From Flavobacteriaceae bacterium (GTDB lineage: Bacteria > Bacteroidota > Bacteroidia > Flavobacteriales > Flavobacteriaceae), in the NCBI GenBank assembly GCA_963669405.2, contig CAXXHF010000001.1:194493-258492 (forward strand): 64,000 nt of DNA, written 5' to 3'. The notes beneath the pieces are model-generated. The model did no database searches, was not told the DNA's origin, and saw nothing but the letters and a program-made list of their open reading frames with translations. The position numbers and the translations under genes were made by a program. This document shows, in pieces, positions 39,885 through 50,522 of the stretch (position 1 is its first letter; each line of letters begins with the position of its first letter).

Positions 39885-42146
39885 TTACGGTTCTAAGGCA
39901 AATGCTGCACTTTTATGAGCATCTCGTGCTACACGCTTCCAACCATTGGTAGCCATTGTATAAACATGCAGGTTTTGCCCAAAAGCAGCTTTTCCTTGTC
40001 CATTATCATAACATTCACCCAATAATTGAGATGGTGTAAAGTGTTTGCTATAAATACCGCCACTCAACAAATAACCAGAAGCACTGTCTATGACCATTCC
40101 ATGAGCATTGGCATTACTTACACCTCCACAGGTGCCTTTTACTACACTAAAGCTAAACACCGCAAAATCATTGGGTTGTGTAGCCTCAAAAGTAATCTCA
40201 AGATCTGCCTCTACGCCATCAGGTTTGTAGTTTACAAAACCACAGCAATCCAAAGATGCTGGAGAACCGTTTACATTTACCGTGAAAATATCTGCATCAC
40301 AGCTTTCATTGTCAAATCGCATGAGCATATTAAAAGCATCTGCAGTTGCTGGTGTTGGATCTTCCAATAGAATATCAGGTGCATTTACACTTAAACTAGC
40401 GTTGTCATGCTTAGGTATCTTGAAGATATTTTTAGGAATATTACTTAACAAGTTCCCAGCTTGATCAAACAGCTCTAATTTAAACTCATACAACCCATTA
40501 CCCCCTGGAAAGGCAGTAGAGTCAAAACTCATGGTATTCATGTTGTATGTCTGTTCGTGCCAAAGCGGGTTGTTTTCAGGTACGTTAAATGGTGCCATTG
40601 TAGGCTGTTGTGGCGGGATGATATACAAATCATCATTACCTCCCACACTAAATGGCCCTAATTTCACACTATTGGCACCAATTTGAGTATCGTTATTGGA
40701 GTCTTGATATTCAAAATCGTATCCTTTGTTCATAACGCTACCAGAGGATGGTACTACAGGTTTGTATGAATCACCTACTGGTGTTAGATCTGCATTCGCT
40801 CGTTTGCGATAGCTCCATCGATAATAATAAATTCCATTATTAGGTAGATCACTACCAAAGCCCATATAAAATGATGGGGTTCCACCAAAGGGTCGTTTGT
40901 AATCATCTACTGTAGTTGTCATTGGCCATACATCTCCATTGGCAGAGGCATCTGTTAACCCAATACGATCATACGGTACTGTTTGTCCTGGGGGTGCTTG
41001 TAGCATACTCGTTTGCTTTATATGTGATACGCTGGTATGCTTGCTAATGGTTCTTACAAATACCAATTCTCCTCCAATTCCACAGTTGCAACAGCAATCT
41101 CCTGGAACAAGTGGATTGGTAATTTGGATATTGATATCACTACCACACTGATAGTTCCAATGGGTATAACATGGAATTGGCGGCTTGTACACAGTGGTCC
41201 ATTCACCATTGATGAAATATTCTACCCAAATATAGATGTCGGGCTTGTCTCCAAAACAGTTATATGTAATTGTGGTGTCAAACCTACCATTGGCATTGGT
41301 TTTTACTACGGCCAATTCTCTACAACGGTAAAAATAAGGCCACCACCAAGGCCAAAAGCAGAACCAAGGATGAAATATGGTGTAGTTGTTAACAATGGTT
41401 TCCCGAATGGTATTGAGGTTTCCGGTAGCCAAGTTTTGTTTTATCTCGGCACTTAGTTCTGGGAGTTTGGCTGATATCTGTGCTCTTTTTTCTTGTACCG
41501 AAATGGTATCGAACAGATTCTCCGTAGGTGGTTGTGCTTGAAGTGGTAATGCCGCACGTTCAAATTGTGGGGGATTTGGAAAGGGTTCCGGTATTCTTGG
41601 TAACCTTTCAGGTTTTAAAATGGCTTCGGGAACTTTTGCAATGATGTGATCCGGGATTTTCTGAATCCAATAGAATATGGAATCTACTTCGCAAATATGC
41701 ACCCTTGCGTTGCATACTGCCTTATTTTCCCAAACATTGCCCCCATTAAACCATTTTGACAATTTACCTTTTACACGACACTTACAAAAGATCCAGTATT
41801 GTGAAAGGTATTTTGGAATAGGTTCTACGGCTACTTCTCCTTCAATAAGGGATGTCATGATAGGTTCATAGGCTTTATAGCTTTCTATTTCTTCAAGATT
41901 AGTCACTGCTAGAATTCGTTTATCGGTAGCAGGTGCCACGAAGAGTCGTAGTTGGTCTAAACGGTATTCACGTTGGCCTTGTTTTAGATCAAAGACAAGT
42001 TCGAGATCATCGGCTAGTTGACGCTGTAACAATCTCCCTCTACAATCAAAAAGAAACCCAACAAGGGCTATTTCTGCTTGTGGATGCTGTTCATAACACA
42101 GCTGAACTTTGAATCGCAAATGGTGATTCTTAGATTTTTTTTCCAT
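39885..42146 (-). CDS. Large hypothetical protein (753 aa), Cys/Trp-rich
   Basis: Long ATG ORF, no signal peptide seen. Confidence 0.85.
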   Translation of the reverse strand: MEKKSKNHHLRFKVQLCYEQHPQAEIALVGFLFDCRGRLLQRQLADDLELVFDLKQGQREYRLDQLRLFVAPATDKRILAVTNLEEIESYKAYEPIMTSLIEGEVAVEPIPKYLSQYWIFCKCRVKGKLSKWFNGGNVWENKAVCNARVHICEVDSIFYWIQKIPDHIIAKVPEAILKPERLPRIPEPFPNPPQFERAALPLQAQPPTENLFDTISVQEKRAQISAKLPELSAEIKQNLATGNLNTIRETIVNNYTIFHPWFCFWPWWWPYFYRCRELAVVKTNANGRFDTTITYNCFGDKPDIYIWVEYFINGEWTTVYKPPIPCYTHWNYQCGSDINIQITNPLVPGDCCCNCGIGGELVFVRTISKHTSVSHIKQTSMLQAPPGQTVPYDRIGLTDASANGDVWPMTTTVDDYKRPFGGTPSFYMGFGSDLPNNGIYYYRWSYRKRANADLTPVGDSYKPVVPSSGSVMNKGYDFEYQDSNNDTQIGANSVKLGPFSVGGNDDLYIIPPQQPTMAPFNVPENNPLWHEQTYNMNTMSFDSTAFPGGNGLYEFKLELFDQAGNLLSNIPKNIFKIPKHDNASLSVNAPDILLEDPTPATADAFNMLMRFDNESCDADIFTVNVNGSPASLDCCGFVNYKPDGVEADLEITFEATQPNDFAVFSFSVVKGTCGGVSNANAHGMVIDSASGYLLSGGIYSKHFTPSQLLGECYDNGQGKAAFGQNLHVYTMATNGWKRVARDAHKSAAFALEP

Positions 42147-46371: not shown

Positions 46372-46905
46372 CTACTCAAAGTATAACCTAGGTTCTATCT
46401 TTCTTGGTAGTGAATTGTCTATTAAATGTGTTTGTGAACGATGCCTATATACTTCCTCAACCACAGCGTCAAAATCTGTTTCTAGATCTTTCCAAAGAAG
46501 TTTTCGTGCATATCCTGATTTTAAATTTGCTTCAAGCCTTGCCGGAACAGAATGACTATTTACCGGAAGATATAATGCAATAAGTCCTTTTGGATTAAAA
46601 CGCCTATTGGACTGATTTTTAATTTGAATTGTCCGTAATGAATACCAAATTTCCCAATCAACCCATTTGCTTAGACCAGTTTCTTCACCCACTAAAACGA
46701 TTGTGATCGACGTACTCCATAGCCTATACTGAATTTTACGTGAAATCTTGTATTTGGAAGCCTTTGCTAAATCTTGTTCTTTGAAACCATAATCTGAAAA
46801 TGTATGATTGTCAAATTTCTCTCTTAAGGTTTTCAAGTGCTTTGAATCCTGCAAGTGTTGGTAACTAAAAAAATAATTGCGTTTTGCCATTTTGAAAAAA
46901 TGCAA
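46372..46905 (-). CDS. TIR domain protein (Thoeris ThsB / DUF1863-like)
   Basis: YFFSYQH, SITIVLVGEET, SKWVDWEI with catalytic Glu. Confidence 0.85.
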   Translation of the reverse strand: MHFFKMAKRNYFFSYQHLQDSKHLKTLREKFDNHTFSDYGFKEQDLAKASKYKISRKIQYRLWSTSITIVLVGEETGLSKWVDWEIWYSLRTIQIKNQSNRRFNPKGLIALYLPVNSHSVPARLEANLKSGYARKLLWKDLETDFDAVVEEVYRHRSQTHLIDNSLPRKIEPRLYFE

Positions 46906-46931
46906 GTATGAAACTTCTATTTTCTATATCT

Positions 46932-48167
46932 TCAATCCAGTACAATTTTAGCTTTTATATTGGCCATTTTGGCGGCTTGGCTTTCGTAAGAATCTATAGC
47001 AAAATCTCCTTCTACATATTCTTTTGCTTTGTCTACATATTCTGCTGCTTTTGCGGTATCTTCCAAACCATTATAGGCTTCTGCCATGGTAAGTAATACC
47101 CATTCTTTATCCCCTCTTTTTTCAAATTCTGGAGAATTAACAATGGTGCTCCATTTGTTGGCAATTTCTTGCCAAATCTTTCGGGCTTGTCCATAATTGG
47201 CATAAATATCAAATTTAGCATCAGCTTGTTTCGCCCTGGATAAATAAATGAATGCCGTATTGATCCCATTATAATAATCCTGCTTCACATAATACCCACG
47301 TTCGTAAAAATGAAGGGAAGCATCTAAATGTTCTTTGTCTTGTTCTTGCTCGTACAAACGCTTGTAGATTGCACCCAACAGCCCTAATGTTTCCGGATCT
47401 GTGGTTTCCTTTGGTTTTAGAGCTTCCAACACCGTAAGGGCCTCATTTAAAGCTGCTACTTCGTTAGGCAATTTAGACTTGTAAATGGTAAGAGCCAAAC
47501 GCTGAAGTATGAAACTATCGTTGGGCTTGGTTTTCAATGCTTGTTCCAACAAAGCTTTGGCAACAGCATATTCTTTGTTGTTCTTTTTTTCTTCTGCCAA
47601 TTCTACCAAATCTGCAGTAGAACTAAACCGCTCTATGTTCTCCTGAATGTCTTCAATCTCTTCATCAGAAAATGAAGGAGGTGTAAGTTTGGTTAAAAAA
47701 GTATAGACAGGGCTATCCACTTTTGGTTCATCCATTAAGGTCTGAACCAGTTTTTTTAAGTGCTTCTGAAAACGAACTACTTCGCTATACCCAATATCCG
47801 ACTCCAAATGCTCATAAAAATGGGTTGCTACATGATTTACATCAAAGGGGAGCTTCAGTTTGTTTTCAGCAATTACTATCGTAGTATTGGGACGCAGGGC
47901 GTGTCTAATTCCTAATTCATAGATAGCATTTGGATTTAGTGTAGAAATGTCTGCAACCACAAAATCCGCCTTGAAAATACTTTCATACATTTCTACATCA
48001 ATCACCCCAGATTGATCTAAATCACAGGAACGATAACACAGGATATCCAATTCATCGAATACAGGTTTAATGATATTTTCGAACGTTTTATCCAGATTAA
48101 TCCTACGTCCAGTTTCAAAATCGGTTTTTACACCAAATCCTATAATTACAAAACAGGTTTTTTTCAT
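46932..48167 (-). CDS. Deoxyribohydrolase/NDT-like domain + TPR sensor (DUF4071-like)
   Basis: CFVIIGFG...VVADISTLNPNAIYELGIRHAL; GLLGAIYKR...YNGINTAF. Confidence 0.82.
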   Translation of the reverse strand: MKKTCFVIIGFGVKTDFETGRRINLDKTFENIIKPVFDELDILCYRSCDLDQSGVIDVEMYESIFKADFVVADISTLNPNAIYELGIRHALRPNTTIVIAENKLKLPFDVNHVATHFYEHLESDIGYSEVVRFQKHLKKLVQTLMDEPKVDSPVYTFLTKLTPPSFSDEEIEDIQENIERFSSTADLVELAEEKKNNKEYAVAKALLEQALKTKPNDSFILQRLALTIYKSKLPNEVAALNEALTVLEALKPKETTDPETLGLLGAIYKRLYEQEQDKEHLDASLHFYERGYYVKQDYYNGINTAFIYLSRAKQADAKFDIYANYGQARKIWQEIANKWSTIVNSPEFEKRGDKEWVLLTMAEAYNGLEDTAKAAEYVDKAKEYVEGDFAIDSYESQAAKMANIKAKIVLD

Positions 48168-48301
48168 GACATTATTTTTATGAATGGGGATTTTCGTTTG
48201 TGATATAGCTTTAATCCTCGATAAATACTTTTATATCTTTATCTTGGTAAGTCTTCTTTTGAAGAATCTCCTTAAAATTAAAACATTAATCAGAATTATC
48301 C

Positions 48302-49054
48302 ATGTTCAACCGTGTTATTTCCGTACTAAAAAAACCAAATCATTACAGATGGTTAACTGCCAAAGGAATCTGTCATAAATTGGGGTTGCATGAAGATCGA
48401 TCTACCGAAATAGAACAGTTATTGATTCATTATTTTGATACTACTGAATCCCCGGAAATTCGATATTCATCACTTCCCAGCAAGTATAGTTTGGAAATAC
48501 TTTGGGGACACGTAGATAAAGTTGGCACACGTGATTTATTTGACCTCTTTAAAGAAGATGATGCGCTTCAAGCAGATTATCTTAAAGACATTGAGGACGA
48601 ACGTAATATGTTTTTATCCTATAGTTTTAAGGATACCGCTAATGTCTTGCAGTTTGCAAAACATATCATTCATAAAGGAATATATCCTTGGATTGCACAA
48701 GTGGATTTGTATAGAAATCAAGGTATTAACGAAGGTGTCATTGATGCTATTCGCAATTTGGACAATTATGGCATCTTTCTCTCTCAAAATACATTGAACT
48801 CAACTTGGTCTGCTAAGGAGTTTGAATTTGCCCTTACCAACAAGAAAAAAATGTATGCTTTTGTTCAAGAAAAAGATCAAGGAATTATTGATTTAATTGC
48901 AGGTGATTCACAAATACATGAACATATGAACATTCATGGCTTATTGGTTAAAATCTTTGACAACGGTCAATTATCTGAACAAATGGAATTCTATTCTATT
49001 TCTAAAAATGGTATGGATTTACAAAGAATAACAAGAGCTAATAGGGCTTTATAA
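48302..49054 (+). CDS. TIR_2 domain protein with an N-terminal extra domain
   Basis: MFLSYSFKD...IFLSQNTLNSTWSAKEF. Confidence 0.82.
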   Translation: MFNRVISVLKKPNHYRWLTAKGICHKLGLHEDRSTEIEQLLIHYFDTTESPEIRYSSLPSKYSLEILWGHVDKVGTRDLFDLFKEDDALQADYLKDIEDERNMFLSYSFKDTANVLQFAKHIIHKGIYPWIAQVDLYRNQGINEGVIDAIRNLDNYGIFLSQNTLNSTWSAKEFEFALTNKKKMYAFVQEKDQGIIDLIAGDSQIHEHMNIHGLLVKIFDNGQLSEQMEFYSISKNGMDLQRITRANRAL

Positions 49055-49061
49055 ATAACAA

Positions 49062-50522
49062 TTAGTATTCTACTCCATTAAGTGCTTCGTAGGCAAATTT
49101 TGCATTGAGGTAGATACTATGCCGTACACGTATGTTATTTTTATTTTCTTCGAAAACTTGATTATAATACTCTTCGGCCTTGTCTTCATTTCCAAGATAT
49201 AAGTTACCTTCTGCCAAGGTTGCCATTTCCCATGTTTCAGTAGTCTCTGGATCACAATTGGCCAAGGCAATTTCTGCAAATTCCTTCATTTTAGATTTGT
49301 CCTCTTTATAAACCAAATAGAAGAATGCCACATTAATAGCGAGGTAAAACACCTGGTTTTTATCTACCTCAATTGCATTAGCAGCCATATCATATCCTTC
49401 TAAATAGGTTTCCCAAGCATTCTTGGCATCTTCAGAATCACTTCCATGATATAAATACTTCCGTTTGTATCTTCCTCCTAATATTCCTTTAAAGTCAGAA
49501 TGTGTAGCTGTTATAGGGTGTGATTCCAAAATTGCTATGGCATCATCATCCTTTCCAAGTGTATCTAATGCCAATATCAAACTACGTAGATCTCTAGGTG
49601 TTAGTTTTGAAATATTATCATCCAACTTATCTACAACGTCACTTGCCTTTGCCATAACCGTATTCACCAAGTAGGAATCAATATTAGTACCATAGCGTTC
49701 TTGTACAATGGTTGGTATAACACTATCCAATATCATTCGGAAACAAAGATTTTCGGTATCGGTATCGCTTTTCGCCTTTACCATGGTACTATGGTTTCCT
49801 TCTATTAGGTATTGATGGTCTTTAGCAAATGGTTTTAAAGAGGAAGTTTGTGGTATAAATTCATCTGAATTTCCCGCAACTACTTTAAAATCTTCAAACG
49901 GATATCCTTCACTGAAGGTATTGTTCCAATCTGTTCTCAAAGAGGTAATAAATTCACTCTCAGATCCCATGTTTTTAATTTGGGATTTCATTTTTTTAGC
50001 TACACGTAAATTGGCAACATTCAATCCGCCACTAGGAGTACCAAAGAACAATAAGTGTTTAATTCTTTTAAGATTGGATGTGTCTAAATTAAGGGTACAG
50101 CGTTGTGTGACCAACCCTCCCATACTATGGGCAATTATAGTAACTCTTCCATACGCCTTAAACCGTGTAGTGAGAAGGGTTTCTAGATAGTTGGACAAGG
50201 TATTCACATCGGGGTCCGCAGACCAAATTCCTTTCGCAATATCTGGTAAGATACTAGAGCTATAACCAATAGAAAATACATCATACCCTTTTAGTTGCGG
50301 TTCTTTTATAAGCAGTTCAGGAACATTGGCAAAAGTCTCCGTTGCAGATCCTGTAAAACCATGAATAAAAAGAATCAGGTTCCCTTTCTTTTCTTCTTCC
50401 CTATAACAATAAACGTCTCCATCATTCTTGCCAGACTCCTTCTCTGTTATCTTTTTTACAACTATTTTGCCAATTGTCTTTATAGCAAACTGAAGAATAA
50501 ATGTAGGAATGGATATACTCAT
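49062..50522 (-). CDS. Alpha/beta hydrolase (lipase-like) + TPR sensor domain
   Basis: FIHGFTG, AHSMGG, FGTPSGG, GNHSTMVK; GILGGRYKR...YLAINVAF...ATLAE. Confidence 0.85.
   Translation of the reverse strand: MSISIPTFILQFAIKTIGKIVVKKITEKESGKNDGDVYCYREEEKKGNLILFIHGFTGSATETFANVPELLIKEPQLKGYDVFSIGYSSSILPDIAKGIWSADPDVNTLSNYLETLLTTRFKAYGRVTIIAHSMGGLVTQRCTLNLDTSNLKRIKHLLFFGTPSGGLNVANLRVAKKMKSQIKNMGSESEFITSLRTDWNNTFSEGYPFEDFKVVAGNSDEFIPQTSSLKPFAKDHQYLIEGNHSTMVKAKSDTDTENLCFRMILDSVIPTIVQERYGTNIDSYLVNTVMAKASDVVDKLDDNISKLTPRDLRSLILALDTLGKDDDAIAILESHPITATHSDFKGILGGRYKRKYLYHGSDSEDAKNAWETYLEGYDMAANAIEVDKNQVFYLAINVAFFYLVYKEDKSKMKEFAEIALANCDPETTETWEMATLAEGNLYLGNEDKAEEYYNQVFEENKNNIRVRHSIYLNAKFAYEALNGVEY

Follow-up and report, generated by a model that had tools for sequence, protein, structure and literature searches.

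Predicted type VIII Thoeris genes beside a second TIR gene and an alpha/beta-hydrolase–TPR-S gene: a probable composite anti-phage signalling locus in a flavobacterium

Type VIII Thoeris consists of a ThsB TIR protein and the effector ThsI, described as 'CMP hydrolase and TPR' (CMP, cytidine monophosphate; Yirmiya et al., bioRxiv 10.64898/2025.12.03.692087, Dec 2025). Systems from Yersinia enterocolitica and from a Pseudomonas metagenomic scaffold protected E. coli, and the type is found mostly in Pseudomonadota. Its TIRs gave canonical cyclic ADP-ribose (cADPR) only after infection, a result seen with the TIR expressed alone, and external cADPR stopped the growth of cells carrying type VIII Thoeris. 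The same preprint reports operons in which two different effectors answer one signal, and it credits Burroughs and Aravind (2020) with predicting that this TPR acts in TIR signalling. A like pair of a TIR and a glycosidase–TPR protein is BcTir/Tpr of Bacillus cereus (Liu et al., bioRxiv 10.1101/2023.05.26.542521), in a preprint that credits Burroughs and Aravind (2020) for Tpr-centred assemblies. Here we describe a four-gene locus at positions 46372–50522 of a 64,000-nucleotide stretch of DNA from a Flavobacteriaceae bacterium (contig CAXXHF010000001.1, positions 194,493–258,492; the whole stretch is called the window). Two of the genes are predicted to be thsI and thsB of type VIII Thoeris, and together with a second TIR gene and a gene for an alpha/beta-hydrolase joined to a TPR-S domain they probably form a composite Thoeris-type anti-phage signalling locus.

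The locus contains four open reading frames (ORFs), of which A, B and D lie on the minus strand and C on the plus strand. Coordinates are those of the window, and protein lengths are in amino acids (aa):

46372–46890, minus strand: thsB (gene A), predicted ThsB-type TIR signal synthase, 172 aa from its ATG; the ORF spans 46372–46905
46932–48167, minus strand: thsI (gene B), predicted type VIII Thoeris effector, 411 aa
48168–48301, no strand: divergent intergenic region of 134 bp between thsI and the second TIR gene (C)
48302–49054, plus strand: gene C, second TIR protein, 250 aa
49062–50522, minus strand: gene D, predicted second effector, 486 aa

The strongest link to a validated system came from gene B. 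The protein encoded just upstream of the validated Yersinia enterocolitica ThsB, a TPR-S protein of 417 aa, was 39% identical to B over 403 of its 411 residues (E 7e-94). This Yersinia ThsI was located by taking the validated ThsB TIR sequence from Table S1 of Yirmiya et al. to its protein, from the protein to its locus, and from there to the upstream gene. The order thsI then thsB was identical in the Yersinia locus and in the window, where B and A share a strand and the ATG of A lies 41 nucleotides downstream of B. The architecture of B was also that of type VIII effectors, which are proteins of ~415 aa with an N-terminal CMP-hydrolase or deoxyribohydrolase (DRHyd) domain and a C-terminal TPR-S domain that accompany a small ThsB TIR. 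The first ~120 residues of B matched the PADLOC TIR-effector model PDLC00733 (E 3.7e-10), and the C-terminal domain matched TPR-S (PF20308, E 1.8e-24) as well as MAP3K_TRAF_bd (E 6.6e-10). A first-pass annotation of this DNA had called B a deoxyribohydrolase-like protein with TPRs and an NAIYELG motif, and these matches bear that description out. Asn78, Asn80 and Glu84 of this motif region were invariant in 46 homologues and correspond to Asn80, Asn82 and Glu86 of BcTpr; homologues of B numbered more than 2,800. The AlphaFold2 model of B had a pLDDT (predicted local distance difference test) of 87, and a sequence search of the PDB with B gave no match. The parts of B are:

47688–48167, minus strand: predicted N-glycosidase domain of the TIR/nucleoside deoxyribosyltransferase (NDT), DRHyd or 'CMP hydrolase' kind, aa 1–160
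47910–47936, minus strand: NPNAIYELG, aa 78–86, holding the N78-P-N80...E84 motif
46935–47615, minus strand: TPR-S sensor (PF20308), aa 185–411
47358–47384, 47292–47306, 47241–47273 and 47079–47102, minus strand: TPR-S motifs GLLGAIYKR, YERGY, YNGINTAFIYL and WVLLTMAE

Gene A supplied the adjacent ThsB in the same predicted operon. Its product matched ThsB_TIR (PF08937, E 1.6e-15) and ten PADLOC ThsB models, and the sequences that it matched in the PDB were ThsB/TIR cyclic ADP-ribose synthases (9vyl, 8fz9, 6lhy and 9b7d). The catalytic-Glu motif WVDWEI, which had already been pointed out, occupies aa 81–86 (46648–46665), its Glu being Glu85 when residues are counted from the TTG codon at 46905 and Glu80 when they are counted from the ATG. 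The true start is probably the ATG at 46890, giving 172 aa, because five ThsB homologues align from Met6. From the comparisons of both proteins we conclude that B and A are, on sequence grounds, thsI and thsB of type VIII Thoeris, here in a flavobacterium. To this extent the locus is not the undescribed system that the first-pass annotation had proposed, since A and B match both type VIII Thoeris and BcTir/Tpr; as a variant, the proposal survives for C and D, which were found in no validated type.

The second TIR protein, C, matched TIR_2 (E 7.6e-9, aa 104–183) and carried the WSAKEF motif that had been reported for it. A search with C gave 331 cluster representatives at E<=1e-3; the best matches were mostly ~250–300 aa long and spanned both domains. 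Residues W17, R54, P59, W68, F104, S106, D111, W130, S167, W169, K172 and E173 were invariant in this family. We infer only that the N-terminal domain is possibly a winged helix. The parts of C are:

48302–48601, plus strand: conserved N-terminal domain, ~100 aa
48602–48901, plus strand: TIR domain (TIR_2)
48806–48823, plus strand: catalytic-Glu motif WSAKEF, aa 169–174, with Glu173

The product of gene D matched the alpha/beta-hydrolase families PGAP1, DUF7379 and DUF676 of Pfam, together with TPR-S (E 4.3e-12), and its hydrolase domain matched the lipase-type LmuA model of PADLOC (E 2.4e-7). The earlier description of D as a lipase with TPRs thus holds for the architecture, an alpha/beta-hydrolase with TPR-S, and fails for the nucleophile motif, which reads AHSMGG and not GHSMG. 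The putative catalytic triad S133, D220 and H244 was invariant in 45 homologues. The AlphaFold2 model of D (pLDDT 87.3) gave fold matches to monoacylglycerol lipase, esterases and Legionella RavL, and a PDB sequence search with D returned nothing. The parts of D are:

aa 7–28, minus strand: N-terminal helix, of low model confidence
49713–50417, minus strand: predicted serine alpha/beta-hydrolase (lipase/esterase), aa 36–270
50115–50132, minus strand: AHSMGG nucleophile motif (Ser133)
within 49851–49871, minus strand: Asp220
within 49782–49799, minus strand: His244
49065–49676, minus strand: TPR-S sensor (PF20308), aa 283–486
49461–49487, 49392–49406, 49314–49346 and 49209–49232, minus strand: TPR-S motifs GILGGRYKR, YLEGY, YLAINVAFFYL and WEMATLAE

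Residues 1–34 of D held the poorly predicted helix, with a mean hydropathy of ~1.0–1.4 and no clear transmembrane segment; the helix may be an amphipathic membrane anchor. Homologues of D carried an N-terminal extension of similar length whose sequence was not conserved.

The family to which D belongs comprised at least 647 proteins, and no relatives of D were found in the viral contigs searched. When metagenomes were scanned with the D alignment, matches to the unspecific HSMGG pattern predominated, and only 5 of 49 loci were true relatives. As a system D was absent from PADLOC 2023. The literature searched, which did not cover Burroughs and Aravind 2020, yielded no TIR-linked alpha/beta-hydrolase–TPR effector. 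Table S1 of Yirmiya et al., in its part up to the entry 'DUF2270', carried no label 'lipase', 'esterase' or 'alpha' (the paper lists 29 putative types). As predicted from their domains, C, with its small conserved domain and TIR, and D would form a second module, one that was found in no validated type.

The TPR regions of B and D were compared directly. All four of the common TPR motifs that had been proposed were found in both proteins. By BLASTP, B and D were 29% identical over 156 residues (E 3e-5), and family profiles built from 46 B homologues and 45 D homologues aligned over 127 columns with 98% probability (E 1.3e-13). The common motif residues were invariant or near-invariant columns in both families: G262, G265, K269, R270, Y288, G291, Y299, N303 and W356 in B, and G346, G350, K353, R354, Y373, Y393, N397, W431, T435 and E438 in D. 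These alignments indicate that the two TPR regions are homologous, beyond chance likeness. B and D were the sole TPR-S proteins encoded in the 3.96-Mb genome. The Glu that the first-pass annotation had noted in each of three putative nucleotide-processing domains was present as the Glu of WVDWEI in A, E84 in B and Glu173 in C. The genome also encodes, on other contigs (L096–L104), another ThsB_TIR gene (near 198.5 kb of contig 3), and its TIR_2-matching genes number eight in all.

Relatives of D were then considered in their own neighbourhoods. A TIR gene lay nearby in 8 of 10 D-family loci, namely the window and the following seven:

L006: ThsB_TIR, Nmad2 and a D-type gene
L007: a D-type gene and a ThsB 59% identical to A, with no ThsI; a minimal pair
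L008: a TIR_2–methyltransferase gene, then a D-type gene
L009: three ThsB_TIR genes, a DRHyd–TPR protein gene, a D-type gene and an NDT-like gene, beside Tn7-like tns genes
L023: a caspase–alpha/beta-hydrolase–TPR-S gene, then a TIR_2 protein gene
L024: a metagenomic operon of ThsB_TIR, a D homologue and a ThsI-like gene (MAP3K_TRAF_bd 4.8e-43), all co-directional
L025: a D-type gene, then a TIR_2 gene

Single chains that join alpha/beta-hydrolase, TPR-S and TIR also exist (P0209 and P0230), as do caspase–hydrolase–TPR-S chains (P0178 and P0200). The four genes of the window had been proposed as one unit. This did not hold up as a fixed set, since the partner of a D-type gene elsewhere may be just a ThsB (L007) or may include a ThsI-like gene (L009 and L024), and other D-type genes carry a fused caspase or TIR domain.

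Further loci showed other pairings. In the metagenomic locus L022 (1752–4040 and 4194–6425) a caspase–hydrolase–TPR-S gene was preceded by a class III adenylate/guanylate cyclase–TPR gene (PF00211, 9.5e-16) instead of a TIR gene, and for some TPR-S effectors cyclic-mononucleotide signalling may take the place of TIR signalling. Related TPR proteins of 666–673 aa, with no cyclase domain detected, were encoded in L021 and L023. The closest ThsI relatives of B, at 62–67% identity, came from Aquimarina litoralis and Kordia antarctica (L003:3028–7773 and L004:6009–9251). A patatin phospholipase gene preceded ThsI in both loci, which is another pairing of a lipase with ThsI. A protein of 290–300 aa adjoined ThsI in both, with no canonical ThsB; the L003 copy had weak Cap12/Pycsar-TIR and deoxyribosyltransferase matches, and the L004 copy had no recorded match. 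A locus from Pyrinomonadaceae (Acidobacteriota; L005:2964–14018) encoded SLATT_2, TIR_2–TPR and ThsB_TIR proteins, a ThsI with 50% identity to B, and a TPR-S–patatin fusion of 895 aa, a combination that has the look of a Thoeris island with several effectors. Mobile-element genes flanked two of the loci: Tn7-like tnsA/tniB/tniQ in the Hymenobacter-like L009 (L009:8539–13236), and a MobA/MobL relaxase and TraD around the validated Yersinia type VIII Thoeris (L018:1–2542).

B and D were patchily spread, as is usual for defence genes. A full-length B homologue was found in none of 40 relatives searched, among them 13 other genomes of the genus, and the matches obtained were at the level of the N-terminal domain only. 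Among 401 genomes sampled across the class, the D family occurred in one, that of the window itself. The flanking MOSC gene was likewise absent from the relatives, so that no empty site could be reconstructed. Genes around the cluster were metabolic or regulatory (MOSC, DUF1348, a beta-lactamase-family hydrolase, AraC and GNAT); no mobile-element genes adjoined it, and the window contained no transfer RNA gene. Elsewhere in the window, at 39885–42146, there was a 753-aa ORF without a Pfam match and with a G+C content of 0.40–0.41, compared with ~0.34–0.36 around it. The intergenic region at 48168–48301 presumably holds the promoters of both flanking genes. A sigma-70 consensus scan, which is ill-suited to Bacteroidota promoters, gave 21 sites against 17.5 expected, and the promoter and terminator scan was at background level.

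In our view the four genes probably make up a composite locus for anti-phage signalling of the Thoeris type, working as follows. Phage infection would activate TIR A (Glu85), TIR C (Glu173) or both, and the activated TIRs would turn NAD+ (nicotinamide adenine dinucleotide) into a cADPR-type messenger. This messenger would bind a conserved basic and aromatic pocket in the TPR-S domains of B and D. Binding would free the N-glycosidase of B (Asn78/Asn80/Glu84), with depletion of NAD+ or nucleotides, and the Ser133–Asp220–His244 hydrolase of D, with attack on membrane lipids or another ester substrate. The outcome would be growth arrest or death before phage release, so that the infection is aborted. 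Work by others has shown, for relatives only, protection against phage, the making of canonical cADPR in response to infection, and toxicity set off by cADPR. For the locus itself, we infer the identity of the messenger, its binding by TPR-S, the activation and substrate of D, and the cross-talk between the two halves. Tentatively, and leaning slightly towards doubt, we also suggest that D may define a further, unnamed Thoeris type in which a TIR-made cADPR-type signal switches on a lipase through TPR-S; in this locus one messenger would then fire two effectors together, depleting NAD+ or nucleotides and damaging membranes.

Several observations weigh against the composite reading. C and D are convergent genes and are not co-transcribed, and no other defence genes flank the cluster. 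Residue 133 of C (48698–48700), within PWLAE just past TIR strand B, is Gln, whereas Glu holds this position in at least 90% of the relatives aligned (32 in number); Glu173, the catalytic residue, is retained. A phylum-wide genome search with the C profile gave only TIR-domain matches that did not include the N-terminal domain. Two D-type loci, L021 and L022, had no TIR gene within the sequence examined. Perception of cADPR by the TPR is presumed, and not shown, in Yirmiya et al. (10.64898/2025.12.03.692087). The TIR of the present locus is also not a close relative of those validated for type VIII. A was 34% identical to Yersinia ThsB over 67 aa only, was nearest to the type VI TIR (31% over 141 aa) and the type IX TIR (27% over 108 aa), and fell outside the TIR clade of the two validated type VIII ThsBs. 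The messenger could consequently be another cADPR isomer, and type VI Thoeris signals with 2'cADPR. Yirmiya et al. (bioRxiv 10.64898/2025.12.03.692087) report that one effector type pairs with several TIR clusters, and for this reason membership of a TIR clade is not a strict mark of type VIII.

Two independent systems that happen to be adjacent are a possible, if doubtful, alternative. Here A and B would be type VIII Thoeris, C and D would use a messenger of their own with no cross-activation, and the adjacency would reflect the clustering of defence genes. The two transcription units in opposite orientations fit this arrangement, as does the placing of A and C in separate TIR families, ThsB_TIR for A and, for C, TIR_2 with an added N-terminal domain. 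The low identity of the two TPR-S domains leaves room for differing ligand specificity, and D-type genes stand without any ThsI in L007, L008 and L025. In L007, however, the only TIR partner of the D-type effector is the closest relative of A, so that a ThsB of the A type is able to work with D-type effectors. L024 and L009 each combine a ThsB with a D homologue and a ThsI-like gene, the putative ligand-contacting motif residues are common to B and D, and operons with two effectors on one signal have been published (Yirmiya et al., 10.64898/2025.12.03.692087). The division of labour between A and B could also be reversed, as in BcTir/Tpr. B would then cleave NAD+, making a cADPR isomer and depleting NAD+, and A would not be the signal synthase but would bind B in a regulatory or sensing role. 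In Bacillus cereus BcTpr is the NADase, its activity being abolished by N82A and E86A; BcTpr itself makes the cADPR isomer, BcTir is catalytically inactive, and the two proteins form a complex and are both needed for defence (Liu et al., bioRxiv 10.1101/2023.05.26.542521). These results, too, count against the scheme in which A makes the signal. The N-terminal domain of B matches the TIR-type NADase effector model PDLC00733, and Cap12/Pycsar-TIR-like matches occur in relatives. Against this, cADPR was detected from a type VIII TIR expressed alone and was toxic when supplied externally (10.64898/2025.12.03.692087). In addition, BcTir has Lys37 in place of the catalytic Glu, whereas A keeps its Glu in WVDWEI. 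We know of no follow-up of the 2023 BcTir/Tpr preprint, which likewise speaks against this model, and we regard it as distinctly improbable here.

The first-pass annotation had allowed for two routes of activation: TIR-made signals acting through the TPRs on a hydrolase and a lipase, or direct phage sensing by the TPRs. The former fits the published evidence for the B family. In the latter, the TPRs would sense phage proteins like the repeat arms of Avs/STAND proteins, and the TIRs would be NAD+-depleting effectors. TPRs are classic protein-binding scaffolds, and the fold searches returned many generic TPR proteins. However, invariant Lys/Arg, Tyr, Asn and Trp residues common to two families with unrelated effector domains are more readily explained by a small ligand that stays constant than by phage proteins, which evolve fast. 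Members of the B family are ~50% identical across phyla, which is unusually conserved for a sensor of phage proteins, and external cADPR alone activates type VIII (10.64898/2025.12.03.692087). Direct sensing is accordingly very unlikely. A role outside immunity, for example a housekeeping or stress-signalling module that keeps NAD or nucleotide levels steady, has an esterase for remodelling lipids and only has domains in common with defence systems, would suit the metabolic and regulatory neighbours and the absence of adjoining mobile-element and transfer RNA genes. It accords poorly with the lack of full-length B in all 40 relatives and of the D family in 400 of the genomes sampled across the class, with the experimentally defensive nature of homologous systems, and with the presence of relatives on mobile elements (Tn7-like in L009, and the relaxase/TraD region in L018). 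We hold it to be extremely improbable.

The composite reading can be set against the known systems. Compared with type VIII Thoeris, so far validated only in systems of proteobacterial origin, the window adds an extra TIR (C) and an extra TPR-S effector (D), and the host is a flavobacterium. Compared with BcTir/Tpr, the residues N80 and E84 of B are equivalent to the mutated N82 and E86 of BcTpr, and the two systems differ in the catalytic Glu of the TIR. The BcTir/Tpr preprint lists Patatin-, YspA-, LSDAT-, calcineurin- and caspase-associated Tpr assemblies, with no alpha/beta-hydrolase and no lipase partner. Types I and II were rejected, there being no SIR2, SLOG or Macro match in any of the four proteins. 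The lack of a ThsA of this kind, as noted in the earlier annotation, is of no consequence because ThsI is the effector. Type XI was also rejected: its ThsL is a HIT hydrolase, and D is a Ser–Asp–His alpha/beta-hydrolase with no HIT match.

As a putative cell-killing output, the serine hydrolase of D resembles the lipase effectors CapV, the patatin of CBASS (cyclic-oligonucleotide-based antiphage signalling system), and LmuA of lipase-type Lamassu. Unlike these, D is a PGAP1/DUF676-like alpha/beta-hydrolase, not a patatin, and has its own TPR-S sensor. No CD-NTase gene was present at the locus. Lamassu was discarded because only the hydrolase domain of D matched LmuA and no LmuB/SMC-like gene lay in or beside the cluster. 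In the systems centred on TPR-S that were predicted by Burroughs and Aravind (J Bacteriol 2020), TPR-S is regarded as a sensor of TIR-made NAD-derived signals and is joined to interchangeable effectors; B and D both carry PF20308 above threshold. The 2020 paper reportedly describes several effector fusions. Specialists would expect systems of this kind to exchange effectors while the sensor is conserved, and the TPR-S sensor is also seen fused to caspases and TIRs. For Thoeris, the locus supplies a candidate lipase switched on by a signal, and a candidate case of two effectors driven by a single signal. Should D respond to cADPR, a membrane-targeting enzyme with a portable sensor would join the set of Thoeris effectors. 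As the two divergent TPR-S domains carry the same invariant Lys/Arg, Tyr, Asn and Trp, they offer a guide to mapping the cADPR pocket.

Outside bacteria, the nearest structural likeness was to the N-terminus of human ASK1 (MAP3K5), a thioredoxin-binding domain followed by TPRs. The resemblance that had been remarked on was recovered: ASK1 was the best PDB fold match of the B model, over both domains (8qgy_A, E 2.7e-5; 5ulm was found too). We know of no nucleotide signal that ASK1 binds. The 411 aa of B stop where the TPR stops and include neither a PH nor a kinase domain, and the two structures superposed poorly overall, with a TM (template modelling) score of 0.41. B was accordingly not taken for an ASK/MAP3K5 kinase, its N-terminal region being homologous and the kinase domain missing. 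The occurrence of the TPR-S fold in ASK1 provides a comparative handle on the TPR-S/ASK1 ligand pocket. In plants, proteins of the EDS1 family, in which a class-3 lipase-like domain is joined to a helical EP domain, receive TIR products. D is not an EDS1 homologue, as it had no Lipase_3 or EDS1_EP Pfam match at E<=0.1 and its top 50 fold matches did not include EDS1, PAD4 or SAG101; the likeness is one of architectural analogy only. If our reading of D is true, its arrangement would be a bacterial functional parallel, and not a homologue, of that of plant EDS1.

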